A stretch of DNA of 64,000 nt from an uncultured bacterium (GTDB taxonomy: Bacteria; Fidelibacterota; UBA2242). The notes below the pieces were generated by a model. It saw only the letters and a list, made by a program, of their open reading frames with translations, made no database searches and was not told the origin of the DNA. This document shows positions 8,103-19,900 of this stretch, in pieces. The translations under genes and the position numbers were made by a program. The stretch's first letter is position 1, and the number at the start of each line of letters is the position of its first letter. The stretch lies in NCBI GenBank assembly GCA_964441235.1, contig CAYTUQ010000010.1, forward strand, positions 11,549 to 75,548, given 5' to 3'.

Positions 8103-9656
8103 ATGTTGAATATATCTAATAAAAAACAATTTACTTTATACATAGTACTAATTGCTGCGATAATTGTTATTTTCAACCTGGTATCACGGTCGCTGTTTTT
8201 TCGTGTTGATCTTACTGATAATAAAATGTATTCATTATCAAATTCCAGTAAATCTGTGATAGAGAAATTAGATGATCGTATGGTTGCAAAGGTGTTTTTT
8301 TCAAAGGATTTACCGGGTAAGTATGCGAATTCACGACGCTATTTACAAGACCTTTTGCAAGAATATCAGGCTTATTCTAAAGGAGAATTCCATTTCGAAT
8401 TTATAAATCCTGATGATAATCAGGAGGCGCAAAATGAAGCACACGGTTACGGAATTCCTCCGGTACAGCTGCAGGTTGTAGAAAATGATAAGTTAGAAAT
8501 AAAAAATGTTTACATGGGTTTAGTTTTTCTATATAATGACAAGAAAGAAGCCCTTCCGGTTATCCAGACAACAGAAGGTTTGGAATATAACCTTACTGCT
8601 GCTATTAAAAAGATTACTGAAACAGATTTGAAAAAGGTAGGAATTATATCCCCTGAAACTAAGGAAGTATCCACAAGAAAATTACAGCAACTTTTAGAGC
8701 AGACATATAACATACAGACCGTTTCGCTAAATAGTGAAATTCCTGTGGAAGTGAATACAATTTTAATGAATGGTGTGGAAGATTCACTTAGCATGGATGA
8801 ACTTTACAATCTGGATCAGTTCCTTATGCGCGGCGGAAAGTTATTTATTGGTCAAGGACGTTTGAAAACGAATTTACAGCAGGGTTTTGCAACGGAAATA
8901 CATAGCAATATGTATGATTTTTTGGAACACTACGGTTTTCATATTGGAAAGGACCTTCTTCTTGATCGTAAATGTGGTCAGATTCGAGTTCAGCAGAGGC
9001 ACGGTTTTTTCAGTTTTGCTAATGCAATTGAATATCCTCTATTTCCATTAATCCACAAATTCAGTAAAGAAAATATAATTGTTAAAAATATAGAGGAAGT
9101 ACAAGCCTTCTTTGTCAATGAAGTTTCTCCTATTGATTCGACAGCCAATTTTACTTCCTTAATGAGAACATCGGATAAAACAGGTTCTATTTCAGGTCCT
9201 TACTATAACATTTATCCGATAAGAAATCCACAAATGAAAATGTTTCCACTAAAAAGTAAAACAATTACTGCAATGGTTGAAGGAAATATGAAAAGCTACT
9301 TTGCCGGTAATTCTGAATATAATCAAAAGGCGAACTTCCTTAGTCAAGTTGAGGATGTACAGATTTTACTTATCACTGATAACGAGTTTTTCAATGATTA
9401 CCGTGCTGCTAGTATTCCTGAGAATACGGATTTTATCTTAAATGGCATTGACTACCTTTCCGGGGACAGAGAGCTATTGGAAATACGTTCTCGTGGTGTT
9501 ACTGCTCGCCCATTAGATCAGCTGTCTGATGGTACGCGCCGCTTCTGGAAGTGGTTAAATATTCTTTTACCGGCACTATTGGTAGTTTTGTTAGGTTTGT
9601 ATCGTTGGAAACGTAATTCAGACAAACGTAAACTCCTGGAGGAAATCTATGGCTAA
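8103..9656 (+). CDS. GldG-like ABC transporter auxiliary protein
   Basis: N- and C-terminal TM anchors and a large periplasmic domain. It follows the ABC ATPase and ABC-2 permease. Confidence 0.6.
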   Translation: MLNISNKKQFTLYIVLIAAIIVIFNLVSRSLFFRVDLTDNKMYSLSNSSKSVIEKLDDRMVAKVFFSKDLPGKYANSRRYLQDLLQEYQAYSKGEFHFEFINPDDNQEAQNEAHGYGIPPVQLQVVENDKLEIKNVYMGLVFLYNDKKEALPVIQTTEGLEYNLTAAIKKITETDLKKVGIISPETKEVSTRKLQQLLEQTYNIQTVSLNSEIPVEVNTILMNGVEDSLSMDELYNLDQFLMRGGKLFIGQGRLKTNLQQGFATEIHSNMYDFLEHYGFHIGKDLLLDRKCGQIRVQQRHGFFSFANAIEYPLFPLIHKFSKENIIVKNIEEVQAFFVNEVSPIDSTANFTSLMRTSDKTGSISGPYYNIYPIRNPQMKMFPLKSKTITAMVEGNMKSYFAGNSEYNQKANFLSQVEDVQILLITDNEFFNDYRAASIPENTDFILNGIDYLSGDRELLEIRSRGVTARPLDQLSDGTRRFWKWLNILLPALLVVLLGLYRWKRNSDKRKLLEEIYG

Positions 9657-10167
9657 GAAAAAAAGTTCATGGGGAATATATGTAGCTGTTTTAGCAGTGG
9701 CAATTTTGCTTTTATTAATTGTTAGAATTAAAGAAAATAAATATGAACAGAAAGTAACTGATATTTTCAAAGTAGATGTAGAAAATGTCAATGCATTTAC
9801 AATTACAAAGGGAGAGGTATCTGTAACCCTGATGTTTGCAGACACTACATGGATATTTGCTGAACCTGATACAGGAAAAGTCAAACAGTATAAAATTAAC
9901 AATTTTCTTAATAATGTTGTAAAATGTAAAAAAACGGGCTTTGCAACAGACAAAGCTGAAAAATACGGTCAATACAATATTACCGATGAATTGGGTACAA
10001 CTGTCGAATTGAAAAAAGGTGAAACAGTACTTGCATCCGTAATAGTAGGAAAGTCAAAAGCAAGTTGGGCGCAGGATTATATAAGATATCCGAATAATCC
10101 TAAAGTCTATATAACTCAGAAAAAATTGCTTAACTATTTAAGTGAGAAGGCATCATTTTGGAGGTAG
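9649..10167 (+). CDS. DUF4340-like protein (fourth gene of the GldAFG-like cluster)
   Basis: N-terminal TM, the usual small gene after GldG, overlapping start. Confidence 0.45.
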   Translation: MAKKKSSWGIYVAVLAVAILLLLIVRIKENKYEQKVTDIFKVDVENVNAFTITKGEVSVTLMFADTTWIFAEPDTGKVKQYKINNFLNNVVKCKKTGFATDKAEKYGQYNITDELGTTVELKKGETVLASVIVGKSKASWAQDYIRYPNNPKVYITQKKLLNYLSEKASFWR

Positions 10168-10175
10168 CAAATTCG

Positions 10176-10248
10176 TTTAGCCCTTCGGGCACGTCAGGGA
10201 TGTCTTTTTGAGAGAAACGGGTTTGAATCGTAGCTGCGAACTGTCTAG
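10176..10248 (+). repeat. Hairpin repeat copy 1 (cgtttagcccTTCGgggc...gagagaaacggg)
   Basis: About 90% identical to 10383-10447. Contains a C(UUCG)G-type tetraloop hairpin and flanking inverted cccgttt/aaacggg arms. Confidence 0.6.
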
Positions 10249-10382
10249 TTCGCATTTTATATATAGATGCTATTAATTAATTTTGTCTAACAAAACTGTT
10301 AATTATGCGAAAAAAACCTGTTTTCGCGATAGCCAAACAGGTTTTTTATAACAACAAATGATTAGTTTTATGACCGGGACAA

Positions 10383-10447
10383 AACCCGTTTAGCCCTTCG
10401 GGCGCGTCAGGGACGTCTCTTTGAGAGAAACGGGTTTGAGTCGTAGA
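10383..10447 (+). repeat. Hairpin repeat copy 2
   Basis: Direct repeat of 10176-10248. A terminator-like hairpin (aaacctgttttcgcgatagccaaacaggtttttt) lies between the copies. Confidence 0.6.
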
Positions 10448-10707
10448 TTATGATATATTCTAACTCAATATTGTGCTCACTCCTATTATTTATTGTGTAC
10501 GTTTTTACAGACAACAAACCAATTCCCGCCTGAACAACGTGAAGTGCACGCGAACAATATTTGCAATTTGAACACAATCTATTAGCCAACAAAGATTTGA
10601 TAGAGTATAAGTAGTTTTATATCTGATTAAATTGTGCGCTTAAATAAAAAGACTACTTGCAATAGTTATTTATTATTCATAACTAATAACAAACATAAGG
10701 AGGAACA

Positions 10708-11274
10708 ATGAAAATACTTCGACACATTGGCTCGCTGGCTTTCGTGCTCGGGCTCTTCACTGCGTTATTCGTCGGCATACCCTGGTACGTGATCATTGCC
10801 GAGGATCCGGTCATGCCCTGGTGGCTCAAGACTGCAGTTTTTTGCCTTTTGGGTGGTATCCTCGTGGTTCTGCTAACAGTGGCTCTCGAACAATGGAAAA
10901 AAAGGAAACCAAAAGAGAAGCTTCCCCTAACTGAGTCTGCCCACCGGATTTTGCTGATGAATTCCACAGAAATACCTGACCAGGAGATCACGGAGATTCT
11001 TGGTCTAGTCCAGGGTCATACTGTATTTGCTATCTGGCTTGGAAAAGATCTATCCGCCTTAGTCAGATTGATCCTCGGAGGCGAACTGATTGAATATACG
11101 GAGATGATGAGAAGAGCTCGGACAGTAGCTGCTAACAGGATGATCGGCCAGGCTGCAGAGATGGGCGCGGACGCAATAATCAATGTTCGCTATATGACTA
11201 CCAGTGTTGTTGCGAGTGCGGCTGAACTTCTGGCTTACGGCACAGCTGTCAAACTCAGTCACATTGCTGCCTGA
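10708..11274 (+). CDS. YbjQ/UPF0145 (DUF74) domain protein with an N-terminal 2-TM segment
   Basis: C-terminal GADAIINVRYMTTS matches the YbjQ family. Strong RBS aaggagg. The gene is visibly GC-richer than its flanks. Confidence 0.7.
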   Translation: MKILRHIGSLAFVLGLFTALFVGIPWYVIIAEDPVMPWWLKTAVFCLLGGILVVLLTVALEQWKKRKPKEKLPLTESAHRILLMNSTEIPDQEITEILGLVQGHTVFAIWLGKDLSALVRLILGGELIEYTEMMRRARTVAANRMIGQAAEMGADAIINVRYMTTSVVASAAELLAYGTAVKLSHIAA

Positions 11275-11457
11275 AACCATTCAATACATCAGCTTACCAT
11301 CAAAGGCGGTGTAAAAGAAAATGGAAGCGCTGCCCTGAAAGAGACGATGATTTAAAATTCGATTGATCTGCTTACACGACTGAAACCGGGTTTATTTTTA
11401 ATAGATATTTTTATCTTGCCTCTTTCCGGTATTCTGTAATTAACCTCGTATATCTAT

Positions 11458-11856
11458 TTACTTTGAGATGCAATCACCAATTATTTCCCACATTTTTAAT
11501 GCATCTTTTGACGAATTATGTGTCCGAATGATCGGTTTTCTTAATATTTTATGAGCAAGAAGGTACATTACGCTTCCGATATACTGTCTTATAAAGTCAT
11601 CTTCAACTTTGACATTATCTGGTGTCCAATAATTTAATTCTTCTTCAAAATGAAAATCAGAATGTGCGATACAGTTTTCATTGTCATAAACAACTATTGC
11701 TAATCTTGAATCCGGAAATCTTGACAATGGATATTTATCAACACGGAAATAGAAACTATATGGTTGTTGCTTCAATTTATTCAGTTTTCCATTATCCAAC
11801 GAGGAATATTCAATATCTTTAATGCTCATTCTTGTAAACCCGCGCAAATCTATCAT
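11458..11856 (-). CDS. Hypothetical 132-aa protein immediately downstream of the retron-type RT (candidate effector)
   Basis: Co-oriented about 100 nt after the RT stop. I recognise no family for it. Confidence 0.5.
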   Translation of the reverse strand: MIDLRGFTRMSIKDIEYSSLDNGKLNKLKQQPYSFYFRVDKYPLSRFPDSRLAIVVYDNENCIAHSDFHFEEELNYWTPDNVKVEDDFIRQYIGSVMYLLAHKILRKPIIRTHNSSKDALKMWEIIGDCISK

Positions 11857-11957
11857 TTACTAATCCTTTCTTGACTAAATAAATGAGAATTTTATAAGTT
11901 GTTGATTCAACTACATCTATATTTTTCTTTAAAACAAATTCATAAGAAAAGCCTCTC

Positions 11958-12779
11958 TTAGGCATTTGTTACACTTTGAATATATCGGGATAAACCTTCC
12001 TTGCTTTTCTGAGAAATGGAATTATCAACTAATTTTTTTCTTTGATCCTTTCTAACATCAAGACAGTTATTTTTCACCTTAATTCCTGTAACTAATGTTG
12101 GACCAACTTTATAAAAGGTCTTTTTATGGCTTATATTATATCCATTATCGCAAATAATTTGAATTATATTTGGTGTTTTGTCTTTAAAATCCGTTTGACT
12201 TGAAAAAGAGAGATCATCAACGAACCGAGTATATACAATTTTTTTTTCTTTACAGAACTCTAACAATACTTTATCAATAGGCAAAAAAACTAAATTAGCT
12301 AGATGTGGGCTTGTCGGAGTCCCTTGTGGTAAACATCCTTTATAAGTTGTCAATAATGTTAATAAATGGCTTACATCTGCAGAAAACGAATTATTAATAA
12401 ACATATTGTAAACATACATATGGTTTACTGAGGGGAAAAAACCCTGTAAATCTGTACAGAAAAAATATTTCTTCCCTTGATGCTTTTTTGCATTTGTAAT
12501 ATTACTCTTTTTTGTAACACCTCCGTGAATATGAGATAGTAATGGTATTTTAGATAAAATTTTATCCTTAATTTTGACTTGAATTTCTTTTAATAAATCT
12601 TTACTTGGATACAATATTCTATTAACAGGTTCACCATTTTTCATTTTAGGCGTCTTATCATCATTAGTTTTTGGTTCTATTTTCTTATAATAATATCTAT
12701 CAATGTTTTCAATAACATGTTTAATAACATCGAGATCAAAATCTAATGTATAAGCAAGATGTTTTGGTTTTTGGATCAT
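11958..12779 (-). CDS. Retron-type reverse transcriptase
   Basis: YYYKKIEPK...NRILYPS (the retron Y..F.IpKk motif), NAKKH (retron-specific NAxxH), FFCTDLQGFFPSV (RT motif 1/2), LPQGTPTSPHLANLVF (motif 4), TRFVDDLSFS (the Y/F-A/V-DD catalytic box) and VTGIKV (the retron VTG motif). Its size, 273 aa, fits the retron range. Confidence 0.85.
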   Translation of the reverse strand: MIQKPKHLAYTLDFDLDVIKHVIENIDRYYYKKIEPKTNDDKTPKMKNGEPVNRILYPSKDLLKEIQVKIKDKILSKIPLLSHIHGGVTKKSNITNAKKHQGKKYFFCTDLQGFFPSVNHMYVYNMFINNSFSADVSHLLTLLTTYKGCLPQGTPTSPHLANLVFLPIDKVLLEFCKEKKIVYTRFVDDLSFSSQTDFKDKTPNIIQIICDNGYNISHKKTFYKVGPTLVTGIKVKNNCLDVRKDQRKKLVDNSISQKSKEGLSRYIQSVTNA

Positions 12780-13069
12780 TATTTTAAAAAAATGTTGTTT
12801 ATTAATTCATTGATAGTTGGAGATACTATTCTGAAAACATCTTTTTTTGAATTTTCCACGTCATTTTCGGTTAATGATTGGAAATATATTACTGGTACTG
12901 GTACTCCAAGAATGGCACTAATTTTTTCTATGAGGTTAATATTTGGATTTCTTTTGCCATGTTCAATTAATGACAAATATGTTTGTGTGATTTCACATCT
13001 TTCTGATAAATCTTTTTGTTTAAAACCTTTTGATTTTCTAATGGTTTTAATTGCCTGTCCTATTTCCAT
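12779..13069 (-). CDS. XRE-family helix-turn-helix protein, coupled to the RT by an ATGA overlap
   Basis: FKQKDLSERCEITQTYLSLIEHGKRNP is a canonical Cro/C1 HTH. Its stop overlaps the RT start. Confidence 0.8.
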   Translation of the reverse strand: MEIGQAIKTIRKSKGFKQKDLSERCEITQTYLSLIEHGKRNPNINLIEKISAILGVPVPVIYFQSLTENDVENSKKDVFRIVSPTINELINNIFLK

Positions 13070-13141
13070 GAGTATTCCACCAATTTATTTTATATATAAT
13101 TAAAAAGAGAAAAAGGGTTCAATTTCCTTACTACAACTCAC

Positions 13142-13357
13142 TCAATTACTCAAAAAATACTTAATCAGATTTCCTATTACTTCAACTACCATATTTTCAG
13201 TCAAAAATTTCCGTTTCATGTTTCTCTGAATTTTTCCTAATAATCTGATAACATCTTCAAATAATTGAATGTCGGAATTTGAAAGTGAATCACGTTTTTT
13301 GGCTAAAAGTTGAATTAGTTTCTCTTCAACTTCATTTAGAGAATCTTTTGAGTTCAT
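13142..13357 (-). CDS. Small 71-aa helical protein, first gene of the RT operon
   Basis: aaggag RBS 7 nt upstream of its ATG. Co-oriented with the HTH and RT. Confidence 0.4.
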   Translation of the reverse strand: MNSKDSLNEVEEKLIQLLAKKRDSLSNSDIQLFEDVIRLLGKIQRNMKRKFLTENMVVEVIGNLIKYFLSN

Positions 13358-13914
13358 TTTGAACTCCTTTCTTTTAGTCCAGCATAATTGCTGGTAGTCG
13401 TCAACAGCAATAACATTTATGTCCGCCGTGATTCACTATAACCCTTTAAATCTTTCGAAACGTAGTCGTTTTGATATTTATTCCAGTTAAATATCGAATT
13501 CAGAATGAACAATATAGTTTCCCAATAATCAACCTCTGATAGCCATATAAGTTGTCAAAGTATTAGAAAACTGAATATACGGTATCGAAAACACTGTGCA
13601 CCAGACGAGGAATGTGGCTAAGCCACTACCCATTTAGGGGTTTCAATCTTTCATAATGTTATCGCTGGGATTCTCTAAATCAGCCTTTCAAAGAACACCT
13701 ATAATATAAAATATATTAACTGATATGTCAAGATATATTTGATTCTATTAACTATTTGTTAATATATTTCAATTCCAATGCTCTAGCAAAAGCCCACAGC
13801 ACCAGCCGGACATAGAATATCACACTGCCTATACAGTCTCACCGTGTTCAAGGAATACTTCGTAATACCGCAATCCGATTGACATCAAGAAAATAGCCAG
13901 ACCCAGGAAAAACA

Positions 13915-14025
13915 GTGAAAAACCAACTCTACTACGGCGACAACCTTGATATCCTCCGGACATTCCCGGATGATTACGTGGATCTGATCTATCTTCCGGT
14001 TATTAATAGTAAAGGCGTGGGGTAA
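13915..14025 (+). pseudogene. Remnant of a DNA methyltransferase N-terminus
   Basis: Translates to VKNQLYYGDNLDILRTFPDDYVDLIYLP, the conserved MTase N-terminal block (LYxGDxLxxL...VDLIYxDPPY). The DPPF motif is disrupted and nothing downstream continues it. Confidence 0.5.
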
Positions 14026-14340
14026 TAAAAAGGCTGGTCTCTTTTTATATTTTCGATTTTACCTTGTTAAAAAAACCGGTCAGGATTTTGTCCATTTATA
14101 CTCGACACTTTTTAATAAAAATCATTTTTGTCGACTATACAAGGACAATAATTGTATTTCCGCTCACCAAATATAGTACACACAAACAAAAAATTTGAAA
14201 TCAACACTCCATTACTCCATTACTCCAACAATCCAATTCTCCATTACCCTACCACTCCATTTTCTTTTTCTTGTCTTTCCCCAAAATCCGTATTATATTA
14301 CCGACCGACCAGTCAGTCACAATTGAAAAGGGAAATAAAA

Positions 14341-14976
14341 TTGACGCCACTACCCAAAGATAAAGAAAAACGCAAGCGCATTATTGCTGCCGCTATAAAA
14401 GTCTTTGCACTCGACGGGTTAAGCAATGGTAAAATAGCCACTATTGCCCAAAAGGCAGGCATCGGCAAGGGTACAGTCTATGAATATTTCAGCAGTAAGG
14501 AAGATATATTTGAAGCAGTGTTCAAGGATTTTTTCGATCAAATGATAATAGACTATTCTCAACTGCTTGAAGTGCCTATGGATCCAGTCCAGAAAATGGA
14601 AGCTATGTTCGATTACACTTACGATTACCTTGATCAACTTATGGAAGAGAAGCACGGCGAGGAATTGCTGATTTTCCTGGAAATATTCCTGCAGGGCTTC
14701 CGGGATGAATTCAGAGGCGCCGGCAAATTATCTTTCAGCACCGTATTACGTGAAGTATATGATATCTTCAAACCCTTTGTAGATGAAGGCATTAATGCCG
14801 GTGTCTTTAAGCCCCTCGATTCGGAACATGTGACATTTATCCTTTTCGCTGCCCTAGACGGAATCGGTTTGCACTATTTCATTAATCGCAATCATTATAA
14901 TAAAGAAAAATTTAAAACGATCACCAAAGATATTTTTCTGAACGGTTTACTCAAATCCCAAACCGAAGGAGCATAA
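14341..14976 (+). CDS. TetR/AcrR family transcriptional regulator
   Basis: RIIAAAIKVFALDGLSNGKIATIAQKAGIGKGTVYEYF is a TetR HTH. A TTG start at 14341 is likely. The listed 14152 start adds a low-complexity N-terminus that runs through repeat DNA. Confidence 0.7.
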   Translation: MTPLPKDKEKRKRIIAAAIKVFALDGLSNGKIATIAQKAGIGKGTVYEYFSSKEDIFEAVFKDFFDQMIIDYSQLLEVPMDPVQKMEAMFDYTYDYLDQLMEEKHGEELLIFLEIFLQGFRDEFRGAGKLSFSTVLREVYDIFKPFVDEGINAGVFKPLDSEHVTFILFAALDGIGLHYFINRNHYNKEKFKTITKDIFLNGLLKSQTEGA

Positions 14977-14977
14977 C

Positions 14978-15727
14978 ATGAAACGCCTGTTACTATTCTG
15001 CCTGATTATCATCACATCCCTGACCGCCGGCGATCCCGACGTGTCGGGACCGGAGATTCTAAATAAAATCATCAATCTTATGAATCCCGAAAACGCCCGG
15101 GGAGTCATGGAACAGACTATTGTAACCACTTCCGGCGATAAGAGGACTTTCAAATACGAAACTTACATGGGCAATCGCGGTGAGTCGTCACTCATGCGCT
15201 ATCTGGAACCTTCCCGGGTCAAGGGCAATGCGCTGCTCATGATCGATTTTTCCGACAATATCTGGATGTATAACCGCCGCACCGGTCGTGTGCGTAAACT
15301 GGCGTCACATGCCAAAAAGCAGAAGTTCGAGGGTTCCGATTTCACTTATGAAGACATGGGTTCCGGGGACAGCTGGAAAACGGATTTTAAACCCATATTA
15401 AAAGGCACTCAAAAGATAAACAAAGTACGTTGCTTTAAGCTGGAACTTCAGACGAAATCCGAGGATGTTTCTTATAGTAAAATGATCTGTTGGGTACGTG
15501 TCGGCGATTTTTTCCCGATTCAGATCGATTACTACGATGAGAAAAATGTGTTCACAAAAACCCTGTTTCTTCAAGATATTCGTACAATTGAAGGTATATT
15601 AACTCCCATGAAAATGGTTATGAGAAATAATCTCGACCGCACTGAAACCGTCATGAAATACGTCAATATCACTTATGATGTTGAGTTTGATAAAGGCTTC
15701 TTCAGCGAACGAAATTTAAAAAAATAG
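14978..15727 (+). CDS. LolA-like outer-membrane lipoprotein-sorting family protein
   Basis: Signal peptide, and the typical position between TetR and the MMPL transporter. Confidence 0.5.
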   Translation: MKRLLLFCLIIITSLTAGDPDVSGPEILNKIINLMNPENARGVMEQTIVTTSGDKRTFKYETYMGNRGESSLMRYLEPSRVKGNALLMIDFSDNIWMYNRRTGRVRKLASHAKKQKFEGSDFTYEDMGSGDSWKTDFKPILKGTQKINKVRCFKLELQTKSEDVSYSKMICWVRVGDFFPIQIDYYDEKNVFTKTLFLQDIRTIEGILTPMKMVMRNNLDRTETVMKYVNITYDVEFDKGFFSERNLKK

Positions 15728-15744
15728 ACCGAAATGAGATTCTT

Positions 15745-16908
15745 ATGAAACGACTACTTTTTTTGCTAATCATCAGCGCTTCACTTCTTGCCGGACCGGA
15801 CTGGTTTGGGTATTACGAGGGTGAATATGATTTCGGAAAATTACAGGACAAATCAATGTATTTCGGGTATAACAAGTTGCGCCTTGACATGGATACCAGC
15901 CCATCTGAAAATATCAGGATCAGCGCGGACCTGATTTACAAGGAGTATAACGGCCAGACAAATCTGAATTTTCTGGATTTTCTCGACCCCGGTTTTCGAC
16001 CGGTTGTTCCAAATTCTGATATGTCTGGTTGGGACACATTATCCTATATTCCTTACGCCCTCTCGGATTCCCTGTTTATCGACAACATGTTCCTGGAATT
16101 CCATCACAAACTTTTCGATCTGACACTCGGTAAACAGCAGATTTCCCCCGGCGTGGGTTACGCCTGGAATCCGACTGACATTTTCAATATCAAGGATATC
16201 ATGGACCCCACCTATGAAAATACCGGGATTTCTGCTATTAAACTCGGCATACCGCTGGCTGAACGCATTATTTTAACCGGAATTTTACAACCCAAACAAT
16301 CGTGGGATGAGACGGTACAGTATTACCAGATAAAAACCGGGTTTGGGCGCTACGATCTATCGGTCTTATATAGTCGCAGTCAGTATCGTCAGAGCGGTCT
16401 GTTTACAACAACAATCCAGTCACACAATCTATATGGGTTCAACCTTGAAGGTGAATTGTTCGGACTTGGCATTCGCAGCGAAGTAGCCGCTCACCGGTTG
16501 GATTATAACAGCGATAATTTACAATACGAATACATTATCGGCGGTGATTATACGTTTGCCAATTCCCTGTTCCTCCTGACTGAATTCTACCACAGTGACC
16601 TGGGAGCAAAAACCGATCAGACCGTCTTCGATGATTATATGGTCTATTTTGCCGGCGAGCGCAAAAGCCTGAATCAAAATTATCTCTTTGCACTGGCAAT
16701 GTATCCGCTGGGCGACTTGCTGGATATCAGCGCCTTCGGAATTATCAACCTGAATGATAAAAGCGCCGTCATCGCGCCGCAACTGATGTACAGGATTTTC
16801 CAAGATGTGGAATTAGCTTTTATGGGTAGTCTGTTCATCGGTGAAGATCCAGACGAGTTCGGCTTTCAGGAATATGGCGCACGTGTGCGCTTAAGAGCCT
16901 ATTTTTAA
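15745..16908 (+). CDS. Predicted outer-membrane beta-barrel (DUF1302-like)
   Basis: Signal peptide, alternating beta-strand pattern, C-terminal aromatic (AYF) OMP signature. Confidence 0.5.
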   Translation: MKRLLFLLIISASLLAGPDWFGYYEGEYDFGKLQDKSMYFGYNKLRLDMDTSPSENIRISADLIYKEYNGQTNLNFLDFLDPGFRPVVPNSDMSGWDTLSYIPYALSDSLFIDNMFLEFHHKLFDLTLGKQQISPGVGYAWNPTDIFNIKDIMDPTYENTGISAIKLGIPLAERIILTGILQPKQSWDETVQYYQIKTGFGRYDLSVLYSRSQYRQSGLFTTTIQSHNLYGFNLEGELFGLGIRSEVAAHRLDYNSDNLQYEYIIGGDYTFANSLFLLTEFYHSDLGAKTDQTVFDDYMVYFAGERKSLNQNYLFALAMYPLGDLLDISAFGIINLNDKSAVIAPQLMYRIFQDVELAFMGSLFIGEDPDEFGFQEYGARVRLRAYF

Positions 16909-16974
16909 TAATCCGATCTTATTTTAATCTGCTGTAATGGATGAAAGCTGTTAATATTAAAAAGAGGTAAGATA

Positions 16975-19900
16975 ATGAGAGAAAAATTTTTAGATACAAT
17001 TGCTCGCTGGGCAGGTGAAAAAACCTGGTGGATGTTTTTGGGGATAATAATAATTACTATAATTATGGGCGCTTTGGCAGGACAATTAGAAGTGAATATG
17101 AATCTCACTATGCTACTTCCTGAAAACGACCCAATGGTAAATGAATTCAATAAAATCTTTAAAGAATTTAATGGCGCCAATACAGTTTTTGTTGTTGTCG
17201 AAGGAGAACAACAGAATATGAAAAAATTCGCCGAGTATATTACTCCCAAAATATTAAACCTTGAAAATTGGATAGAACAAAATGCTTCTTCCAAAGTAAA
17301 GAAACAACACAACATACTTATTACAAAAGCTGATGAGGGAAAAACCGAATATGCCGGGAATTATTTTGATAGAGTGGATTATAAAATGCCAACTGAATTC
17401 ATGAGAGATCATGGCCTTATGCTGGTAAAAAGTTCTGATCTAAAAAATACCAGTGAAGTATTTACAAATCCCAATATTGTAAAATTATTACAAAATATAA
17501 ATAACAGTCTGGAAAAGGAATATATCCAATCAGAAGAGAAAATCTCCACTACACAGAAAGAACGTTCCGCAGTACAATTTCTTGATGGAATTGAGAGCTG
17601 GTTGGATAATACTGCAAAAGGACTCTATGATTCAGAATATAAAAAACAATCTGCTACTAAAGCAGCAAATGCAATAGGCGTAGGAAATCCCTATTTTATA
17701 TCACCCGATCGCTCAATGCTGCTTATAATGGCTGAACCTACCTTTTCTATCATGGATATGAATTGTGTAATGCCAGGCATCAATGGATTGGAAGAAATGG
17801 TGAAAACTGAATCTACACAATTTAATGTAAAAGCCGGTTTAGCCGGAGGGGTAGTACTTGGCAGAGATGAAATGGTAGCCGGCACAGAGGATTCTTATCT
17901 TTTAACTATATTGGCTTTAATCGCAATATTTATCCTTTTCATATTCACTTTCAGGATGTTCAGCGCCCCTTTGCTTGCGATGTTTAATTTATTAATCGGA
18001 ATAGTGTGGGTTATGGGTGTGGCTTATCTATTAGTACAGAGATTAAATTTATTTACGTTAATGGTTTCTGTGATTCTTGTTGGTCTCGGAATAGATTTTT
18101 CCATTCATATCATTTCACTTTTTTCAGAATACGTAAACAAAGGTGTAGAACCTAAAAAGGCTATCCGCATTACTTTACAAAAAGCGGGAACTGGTATTAT
18201 TACCGGTGGAATAACTACTTCTGCCGCTTTCTTAACACTTTGCATTGGACGTAGTGAAGGTATTAGTGAATTTGGGCTTGTAAATGGAGTCGGCTTATTA
18301 TGTATTATGATTGCTACGATAATCACTCTGCCGACTTTTTTAATGTTACGTGAAAAATACAGAAACTGGCGGGGGAAAAGTATTAAAAAATACCATGATG
18401 TAACCTATGCAGCAATTGGTAATATTGGGCAGAAACAATATAATAAGTGGAAAGTTTCTTTGGTTTCTCTGATCCTTGTCACTCTCATATTGGGTTATTT
18501 TATCACAAAAGTCACTTTTGACTATAATTATCTAAATATGGAGCCGGCTGGATTAGAATCTATTAAACTTAATGATAAAATTATCGACAAATACAACATG
18601 TCTTCGGATGCAACCTGCATTACAGCTAATTCCCTGCAGGAAAACTATAAATTTGCAGAGGAAGCCAAAGAAAAATCCAGTATCAGTTATATTGAATCCA
18701 TTACTGACTATTTACCACCGCAGGACAAGCAAAAATCACGTAAGCAAAAGATAGCAAATATTCACAAGCAGATGGAAAATCAAACAATTGCACAGAAAAT
18801 TACAGAGGTGGATTGGCAAAAATTCATTGATGAAATGATTCGCCTGGAAGATAATGTCATTGAAATGCAGGATATGGCTTTCATAGGCGGGCAGGATATG
18901 GTGGATACAAAAGCAGCCCGCTTAGTCGGGAATGCTAATATTTCTAGAGCAGTAGTTGATCTGGAAGACCTTTTATTTAATCCGGCGGATTTAGAAATTA
19001 ACAATAAAATCAAAAATATTTGCAAGATGCTGAACTTCGTCAAATCCAAAAAGGAAAATCCAAGAATAAAGAATGAACTTTCTGAACTTATAAATAAACT
19101 ATCCGCTTTTTCTAAAAATTCAGTTTCATTATCTAAGGATGAAAAAATAGAAAAACTTAACAAATATTATGGTAAATTAACGCAAATTACTGAATATCCG
19201 GAATTTAAGGGCAGGATATCAGAATTTATAACCCAATTGACTAATAACTCCGATAAATTGGAGCGGCTATCAAAATTTAATCATGATTTTGCTCTAGAAT
19301 ATAAAAATTTAATCCTGAATATGGCTGATACATCGAACATAACTTTATCAATGCTGCCGGATCTCATCAGAGATAAATACATTAGTAAAAGCGGGGAAGT
19401 TTTTCTTTTATCAGTTTATCCCAAAGGGAATATATGGAATCTGAAGTACCTGGATCTTTTTTCCAATGAAATGTTCGAAATCTCCCATAGAATTATCGGA
19501 ACTGCCCCTATGTTTTATTATCTGATAAAAATTATTGGCAGAGATGGGAGAAATGCTGCCTTTTTGACTCTATTTGTGGTCTTCATTTTCTTGTTAATTG
19601 ATTTTAAATCTTTTAAAAGTGCTTTTCTTGCTATGATTCCCCTATTAACCGGAATGATCTGGATGTTGGGATTAATGGGAATATTTCATGTACAACTCAC
19701 TCTTGTAAATATTATGGCTTTACCATTAATTCTGGGAATTGGGGTTGATGATGGAGTACATATCCTGCATCGTTACAGGATTGAAGGAACAGGTGCAATT
19801 AAAACTGTTTTCGCTTCAACGGGAAAAGCAATTATCATAACATCTCTGACAACAATGTTATCTTTCGGCTCTTTAGTTTTTGCCACTTACAGAGGTTACG

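Follow-up and report, generated by a model that had tools for sequence, protein, structure and literature searches.

A type VI retron with a predicted leader-SP hybrid RNA in an uncultured Marinimicrobia bacterium

Type VI retrons are bacterial anti-phage systems composed of a small toxin (SP), a helix-turn-helix (HTH) protein, a reverse transcriptase (RT) and a structured RNA. Here we describe a locus that we read as one of these systems in 64,000 nucleotides (nt) of DNA from an uncultured bacterium (assembly GCA_964441235.1, contig CAYTUQ010000010.1, positions 11,549 to 75,548 of the forward strand). This stretch is called the window and its own numbering is used throughout; features lie on the minus strand unless stated otherwise. 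An initial annotation, made from the letters alone, had placed four co-oriented minus-strand open reading frames (ORFs) here, and all four are found where it put them. They are the SP gene of 71 amino acids (aa; 13357..13142), whose product is the predicted toxic effector, a Cro/C1-type HTH gene of 96 aa (13069..12779), the retron RT gene of 273 aa (12779..11958), and a neighbour of the retron encoding 132 aa with a predicted GNAT-like fold (11856..11458). The strong ribosome-binding site (RBS) noticed before the 71-aa gene is an AAAGGAG Shine-Dalgarno sequence located 7 nt 5′ of the ATG. The reported overlap of the HTH stop with the RT start amounts to one shared base (TAATG at 12779), and the interval of about 100 nt between the RT and the 132-aa gene measures 101 nt from stop to ATG. 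The GC content over the three upstream genes is 27-28%, compared with 35.5% window-wide.

The type of the RT was assigned by profile scores. The protein matched the PADLOC model RT_VI over profile positions 6-251 of 279 (1.2e-72, 242.6 bits), while the runner-up model, RT_III-A, reached 179 bits; Pfam RVT_1 was matched at 2e-13. The motifs NAKKH (residue 96), FVDD (186) and VTG (230) are present, as is PQG, and the earlier recognition of a retron RT from the first three of these signatures agrees with the profile result. The HTH protein matched HTH_VI over almost the entire model (1e-28, positions 2-91 of 92) and Pfam HTH_3 at 1.9e-14, so that the XRE-HTH partner and the HTH-associated retron class mentioned in the initial annotation can now be given as type VI. 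The PADLOC models for this type reportedly follow the classification of Mestre et al. 2020. The match of the 71-aa protein to SP_VI was weak (1.7e-5, 23 bits) and no Pfam family was matched; the same model recognised 25 of the 28 SP-family members sampled, the best at 4.6e-30. A single-sequence structure prediction, which the initial annotation had suggested for this protein, gave three helices with a predicted local distance difference test (pLDDT) score of 80, the C-terminal helix being hydrophobic. This model agrees with the published SP toxins, which are helical with a hydrophobic C-terminus.

The search for related systems yielded 580 RT homologues. The closest are 66% and 65% (Neomarinimicrobiota metagenome-assembled genome, MAG) and 59% (Calditrichaceae MAG) identical to the RT of the window, and a large set at about 50% identity comes from Balneolales, Ignavibacteriota and Bacteroidota. 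The loci of 173 homologues were fetched for comparison of the gene neighbourhood. The HTH gene abuts the RT gene in 154 of them, and an iterative search seeded with the SP of the window detected an SP homologue 5′ of the HTH gene in 143/144 loci. The SP-HTH-RT order therefore recurs in about 140 loci of Marinimicrobia, Calditrichota, Ignavibacteriota and Bacteroidota, and it is the published order: two preprints define type VI retrons as SP-HTH-RT operons whose non-coding RNA lies directly 5′ of SP and is co-transcribed with it as a hybrid RNA (bioRxiv 10.1101/2025.10.22.683967; 10.64898/2026.04.27.721009). Because of the SP_VI match, the occurrence in 143/144 loci and the agreement of the helical model with the published SPs, the 71-aa protein is the canonical type VI SP effector and not an extra gene. 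The initial annotation had taken the 71-aa and 132-aa genes for a variant or new effector configuration; this is not supported, the former being the canonical SP and the latter being absent from every related locus.

A conserved structured leader precedes the SP gene. Its non-coding part, about 340 nt long (13358..13696), was delimited by conservation and fold and would comprise an msr-msd-like arm followed by a riboregulator. It is conserved in the three closest lineages, L001, L007 and L004 (nhmmer E values of 1e-59 to 1e-100), where conserved blocks flank a variable centre, and its fold z-score is −3.5. The initial annotation had been unable to place the msr/msd RNA by eye. This RNA lies in the non-coding stretch that had been noticed upstream of the 71-aa gene, whose functional part spans about 13762-13358 and does not reach 13900, and it would run on across the SP gene, forming a hybrid RNA. 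The two hairpins pointed out within this stretch are also real (minus-strand CCAGCAAUUAUGCUGG at 13394..13379 and GUGGCUUAGCCAC at 13626..13614), with pair probabilities of about 1.0.

Upstream of the leader, the sigma-70-like promoter TTGACA-17-TATATT (13731..13703; 11/12 matches) is the best promoter-like site of the region, and it is nearly identical in L001 and L007. Promoter-like sites as a whole were not enriched over shuffled sequences, so that support for this promoter comes from its conservation and position. Transcription would start near 13696. The inverted repeat TTAAC-N5-GTTAA (13748..13762), 17 nt 5′ of the −35 box, is a candidate operator for the HTH protein; its half-sites are kept in L001 and L007 with a variable spacer (alignment A2).

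The predicted 5′ arm folds according to one plan in the window, L001 and L007. It begins with a stem-loop, GUUCUUUGAA/UUUAGAGAAU (13669..13696), seen in all three loci when the 5′ domain is folded by itself. Two small msr-like hairpins follow (13614..13641), ACCC..GGGU and GUGGC-UUA-GCCAC, with pair probabilities of 0.72 and 1.0, and both are conserved in L001 and L007. A long hairpin of 57 nt with a base of 12 base pairs (13516..13572) is part of the minimum free energy (MFE) structure, the base having a probability of 0.8; in L001 and L007 a long hairpin occupies the same place with an unrelated sequence. The arm ends with an AU-rich hairpin, GAUAUUUA..UAAAUAUC (13473..13495; probability 0.71), also present in both relatives. 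In Retron-Vpa2 the multicopy single-stranded DNA (msDNA) maps to the long stem-loop of the first arm (bioRxiv 10.1101/2025.10.22.683967), and for this reason the hairpin 13572..13516 was assigned as the candidate msd, the putative template of reverse transcription. Among possible a1/a2 pairings we considered UCUUUGAAA at the 5′ end with UUUCGAAAGA, and the 5′ AACCC with the inverted repeat IR1 described below; these were weak and none was convincingly conserved.

Several helices link the leader to the SP coding sequence. In helix H_L, the sequence GUGAAUCACG (13427..13436) pairs with the SP codons R22-L25 (CGUGAUUCAC, 13294..13285). The 3′ arm was anchored by the protein alignment and its complement was sought in the 125 nt upstream of SP in 109 non-redundant loci. 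A perfect complement (10/10) was found in 83% of the loci, compared with 1.7% for 10-mers shifted along the same coding sequence, a control that makes the test unbiased, and about 40 different compensatory arm pairs occur across the loci. The helix, which would enclose the SP ribosome-binding site and start codon, is well supported by this comparison. A second long-range pairing is formed by IR1, AAAGGGUU (13440..13447), and its complement IR2, AACCCUUU (13112..13119), located in the SP-HTH spacer and followed by a U-rich tract; it would close the SP-containing domain. The pairing is compensated in L001 (AAAGGGG / CCCCUUU). The mean best run of complementarity of the IR1 zone was 8.9 with the spacer of its own locus, against 6.2 for shifted zones and 7.4 for the spacers of other loci, and many of the arm pairs are perfectly complementary though unrelated in sequence between loci. 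An inverted repeat that would bracket the whole SP gene is likewise well supported.

The third long-range helix, P1, is an alternative pairing of the 3′ arm of the 5′ stem-loop (13680..13669, AUUUAGAGAAUC) with SP nt +13 to +24 (13345..13334). It forms in the full-length MFE structure and is compensated in L001 (UUUAAAGAAUUU / AAAUUCUUUAAA) and in L007. In an anchored test restricted to Watson-Crick pairs, at least 9 of 10 pairs were found in 30% of 95 loci and in 1.6% of the controls. A run-length statistic was barely above controls in this AT-rich sequence, and only the anchored test discriminated. The family-wide support is weaker for P1.

Local structures surround the translation start of SP. 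The hairpin CCAGCA-AUUA-UGCUGG (13379..13394; probability 0.96), located before the RBS, is paired in 79% with double changes at 6/6 pairs in the 50-sequence alignment A6, whose loci were not selected on this helix. The segment 13350..13367 comprises the Shine-Dalgarno GGAG (13367..13364) and the hairpin GAGUUC-AAAAU-GAACUC, which holds the start codon and has a probability of 1.0 in the thermodynamic fold of the window only. A further hairpin (13332..13307) lies within the SP mRNA. Hairpins inside the SP coding region covary in distant relatives, and in a broad MAFFT alignment the coding-region hairpin was not column-consistent between the subclade of the window and Bacteroidota. An alternative hairpin, AUUGCUG/CAGCAAU (13411..13405 with 13393..13387), is compensated in close relatives and carries in its loop the second of two direct repeats. 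This hairpin (13387-13413) and the one before the RBS (13379-13394) share CAGCAAU and are mutually exclusive, the second being conserved family-wide; together they may constitute the switch element of the riboregulator.

The initial annotation had also proposed a covariance search for the RNA. We built a covariance model of the riboregulator domain (R1) from 41 distant relatives, excluding the window and three close relatives. With filters off, its best match in positions 9000-17000 was a full-length one at minus-strand 13282..13438 (36.1 bits, E 1.7e-6), and this match aligned H_L and the pre-RBS hairpin correctly. A structured RNA in the roughly 300 nt before SP, tied to the SP mRNA by long-range pairing, is a mark of type VI retrons, and the comparative tests support one here. 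Taken across the loci, the comparisons give good support to the leader and the SP mRNA forming one hybrid RNA, and to long-range helices around the SP ribosome-binding site, its start codon and the first codons.

The direct repeat ACGACUAC occurs first at the 3′ edge of the putative msd arm (13462..13469) and a second time, as an exact match, inside the riboregulator (13394..13401); the pair can also be written as ACGACTAC twice. In 90% of 98 loci the two zones share an exact direct repeat 7 nt or more in length, whereas pairing the zones of different loci gave 42% and shuffled sequences 28%. The sequence of the repeat differs between loci, and the two copies stay identical within a locus, indicating concerted change. 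In the proposal of the Vpa2 authors, msDNA copied from the first repeat anneals to the second, and the SP ribosome-binding site is freed (bioRxiv 10.1101/2025.10.22.683967). Concerted change is the pattern to expect where one repeat has to pair with msDNA copied from the other, and our observation therefore provides comparative support for this proposal.

The chromosomal context could be compared with L001, a Marinimicrobia MAG in which the retron occupies the same site, between TetR/TP_0789-like and DUF4340/ABC-transporter genes. The retron region (13840-11955) shares 71% nucleotide identity with L001, and the flanking genes 77-85%. The retron (11955-13840 against 1740-3637 of L001; RT 65% identical in amino acids) is thus more diverged than its flanks, and this greater divergence at a fixed site may reflect either faster evolution of defence genes or exchange of alleles.

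The 132-aa gene was examined separately. In accordance with the earlier view that its product belongs to no recognisable family, no Pfam, NCBIfam or PADLOC model, GNAT models included, was matched at E up to 1. In the structure prediction proposed for it, the predicted fold matches many GNAT structures. A QYIGSV stretch followed by a helix resembles the acetyl-CoA-binding motif A; its last position is valine, whereas GNAT motif A has glycine or alanine there, and typical GNAT acetyltransferases are longer. GNAT toxins come with an antitoxin partner, whereas no antitoxin-like gene of a TacT/AtaT-like pair was found directly upstream of the 132-aa gene, where the sole candidate is the 48-aa ORF described below. 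A tblastn search over the related loci gave matches in the window's own contigs only, a word-indexed homologue search returned just the protein itself, and an exhaustive HMMER search of 1.8 billion representatives found a single true homologue, 51% identical. This homologue lies on 1-kb contigs, where 194 nt of upstream sequence shows no RT; an internal methionine would give it a similar length, of about 135 aa. Comparison with L001 showed that the segment bearing the gene (about 11954-11441, about 0.5 kb) is an insertion absent from that locus, and that the piece immediately beyond (11440-11363, 84 nt) is 86% identical to what follows the RT stop directly in L001. The junctions of the 0.5-kb insertion showed neither a target-site duplication nor terminal repeats. 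The 11363-11440 piece, probably the place where convergent transcription units ended in the ancestor, has been split from the RT by the 132-aa gene and from the DUF4340 gene by a segment carrying a YbjQ-family gene. More generally, the genes downstream of the RT vary from locus to locus. The 132-aa gene, GNAT-like in its predicted fold, is a later, lineage-specific insertion; it is not a conserved component of the retron and probably not a component at all.

An ORF of 48 aa (11965..11819) spans the interval between the two genes, its ATG overlapping the RT stop and its end overlapping the start of the 132-aa gene. It shows weak winged-helix similarity (TrmB, F-93, PadR; E 0.016-0.11) and is probably not a gene; of the related loci compared, none outside the window's own contigs contains it. 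The idea that the 48-aa and 132-aa ORFs are halves of one broken gene was rejected, the N-terminal extension of the homologue of the 132-aa protein being unlike the 48-aa ORF and the internal methionine of that homologue giving a comparable length. In several Bacteroidota loci (L150, L157, L066, L126, L103 and L141) a large co-oriented ORF of 89-723 aa starts no more than a few bases from the RT stop, so that type VI retrons may be coupled to further lineage-specific genes.

A second insertion absent from L001 (about 11362-10167, about 1.2 kb) bears the YbjQ-family gene (10708-11274, plus strand), which has a GC content of 50% compared with 35% in the surroundings. The absence from L001 and the GC content suggest a separate horizontal acquisition beside the retron. 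In the 540-nt spacer upstream of this gene, a 65-nt element occurs twice on the plus strand (10169-10233 and 10382-10446), 213 nt apart and 91-93% identical; these are its only copies in the window. Each folds into three small hairpins closed by a stem of 10 base pairs, and the two copies show compensatory differences; no Rfam family was matched.

By analogy with Retron-Vpa2, the RT and the HTH protein would bind the hybrid RNA, the HTH protein restraining reverse transcription. Phage infection, probably acting through phage recombination proteins or proteins that inhibit RecBCD, would let single-stranded msDNA accumulate, with the long hairpin arm as its template. At its 5′ end the msDNA would be the complement of direct repeat 1 and could anneal to direct repeat 2 in the riboregulator. 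This annealing would open the structure, SP would be translated, and growth of the infected cell would stop. Translational control of this Vpa2-like kind appears the most likely mechanism.

We estimate at about 90% the probability that this locus of an uncultured Marinimicrobia bacterium is a type VI retron with a leader-SP hybrid RNA, for which a Vpa2-like mechanism is proposed. The SP, HTH and RT genes are present in that order behind a conserved structured leader. Several points weigh against this interpretation. An Rfam scan of positions 10000-15500 at E up to 10 returned no msr or retron RNA and only chance matches resembling small nucleolar RNAs, no canonical a1/a2 priming stem and branching G were identified in the leader, and R1 with default filters misses the locus. 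The unconstrained fold of the 604-nt RNA gave H_L and IR1-IR2 a probability of about 0.01 and preferred P1, and two single-sequence folds with slightly different ends gave different long-range pairings. The evidence for the long-range helices is comparative, and these may in part represent alternative states. In alignment A6, H_L is paired in 99%, with double-sided changes at 9/10 pairs, a percentage that is inflated because the loci were chosen for complementarity. The production of msDNA, the toxicity of SP, phage defence and the trigger are all inferred from analogy. Finally, the two characterised type VI retrons differ, control being translational in Vpa2 and post-translational in Sen3, and either may apply here.

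A Sen3-like mechanism would leave the identity of the locus unchanged: SP and single-stranded DNA (ssDNA) would be made constitutively, the HTH protein would act as an antitoxin that neutralises SP, and loss of RecBCD activity during infection would free the toxin. In Sen3 the genes stand in the same order, the leader RNA is conserved and an IR1-IR2 pairing surrounds SP; binding of the HTH protein to SP is compatible with the sequence of the window. However, a model of translational control predicts both the concerted direct repeats and the helices that close over the ribosome-binding site, start codon and early codons, and Sen3 belongs to the proteobacterial cl2075 lineage, distant from the clade of the window. 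We consider the Sen3-like mode possible but less likely for this locus. The 132-aa gene raises a different alternative, the four-gene variant put forward in the initial annotation, in which the GNAT-like protein would have been recruited as a functional, lineage-specific fourth component. It could then be a second effector or modulator, for instance an acetyltransferase whose substrate would be the toxin, the msDNA-protein complex or some target in the phage. The gene begins 101 nt past the RT stop on the same strand, with its own AGGA ribosome-binding site and with no terminator-like site found between the two genes, and the insertion falls precisely where the RT stop would meet the ancestral sequence downstream. 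Against such a role, the gene is absent from all of the other 160-odd related loci, the closest syntenic relative has the ancestral spacer directly after the RT, and no RT precedes the only homologue within the 194 nt available; among the titles and abstract openings returned by a full-text literature search, none described a GNAT-linked retron. We consider recruitment of this gene by the retron very unlikely.

The locus might also be a decaying or domesticated remnant, with intact genes but with msDNA production and defence lost. It is chromosomal, lies among housekeeping-type genes and has been at its site since before the split from L001, and for six type VI retrons studied in E. coli the literature reports that ssDNA was undetectable under standard conditions. 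The lack of basal msDNA is, however, now explained for Vpa2 (bioRxiv 10.1101/2025.10.22.683967). Moreover, the three ORFs are intact with the catalytic motifs kept, and even at an RT identity of only 65% between lineages the promoter and the RNA elements have been preserved, with compensatory changes. This conservation indicates continuing selection, and we regard loss of function as very improbable. The reading as a type VI retron with a leader-SP hybrid RNA is retained: all the sequence-level features that define the type are found at the locus, which adds a case in a little-studied phylum.

What looked like an odd four-gene retron operon is thus a standard type VI retron with a hitch-hiking gene, and its non-coding RNA can now be placed. 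The type VI hybrid RNA has been experimentally characterised in Proteobacteria only, and one of the two preprints reports homologues of it in 81 loci of the 779-member type VI clade. Support from covariation now comes from about 100 loci of the Fibrobacteres-Chlorobi-Bacteroidetes (FCB) group, spanning Marinimicrobia, Calditrichota, Ignavibacteriota and Bacteroidota, and the concerted direct repeats give comparative support to a mechanism proposed, and unproven, in Retron-Vpa2. This support in an FCB-group lineage is a useful, incremental addition to the two recent preprints.

Among known systems, all three proteins of the window match the PADLOC type VI models in the expected order, the SP weakly by itself (23 bits) and strongly as a family. 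Retron-Sen3/cl2075 (Garcia-Rodriguez et al., bioRxiv 10.64898/2026.04.27.721009) shares with the window the gene order, the IR1-IR2 repeats flanking SP, an SP coding sequence under RNA-structural selection and a helical SP with a hydrophobic C-terminus. It comes, however, from Enterobacterales and has an SP of another cluster, whereas the relatives of the window belong to the FCB group. The same study places the cl2760 lineage in the FCB group and describes it as largely restricted to Bacteroidetes; the FCB-group kin of the window retron fit this lineage, and assignment to one of the SP-cluster sublineages (cl2075, cl2760, cl3272, cl3897 and 'Large') is only a lead. The likeness to Retron-Vpa2 of Vibrio parahaemolyticus (Zhang et al., bioRxiv 10.1101/2025.10.22.683967) extends to the RNA. 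Both have the SP-HTH-RT order and a single transcript, predicted in the window, in which an msr-msd part and the SP coding sequence are joined. In both, the first arm contains a long hairpin, stem-loops hold the RBS and start codon, SP is enclosed by an inverted repeat, and short direct repeats occur as a pair, with one copy beside the msd and the other in the riboregulator. The features found here match the published description of the hybrid RNA (hyRNA): three arms, an RBS and a start codon that are sequestered, an inverted repeat that closes the structure, and direct repeats of 7 nt. The two differ in host phylum, in the length of SP (71 aa in the window, 55 aa in Vpa2) and in that of the hybrid RNA, about 600 nt for the candidate, known from sequence alone, against about 470 nt for Vpa2. 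The direct repeat (ACGACUAC in the window) varies between the loci of the window's clade and is not fixed, and an additional pairing of the 5′ end with SP codons 5-8 is predicted for the window.

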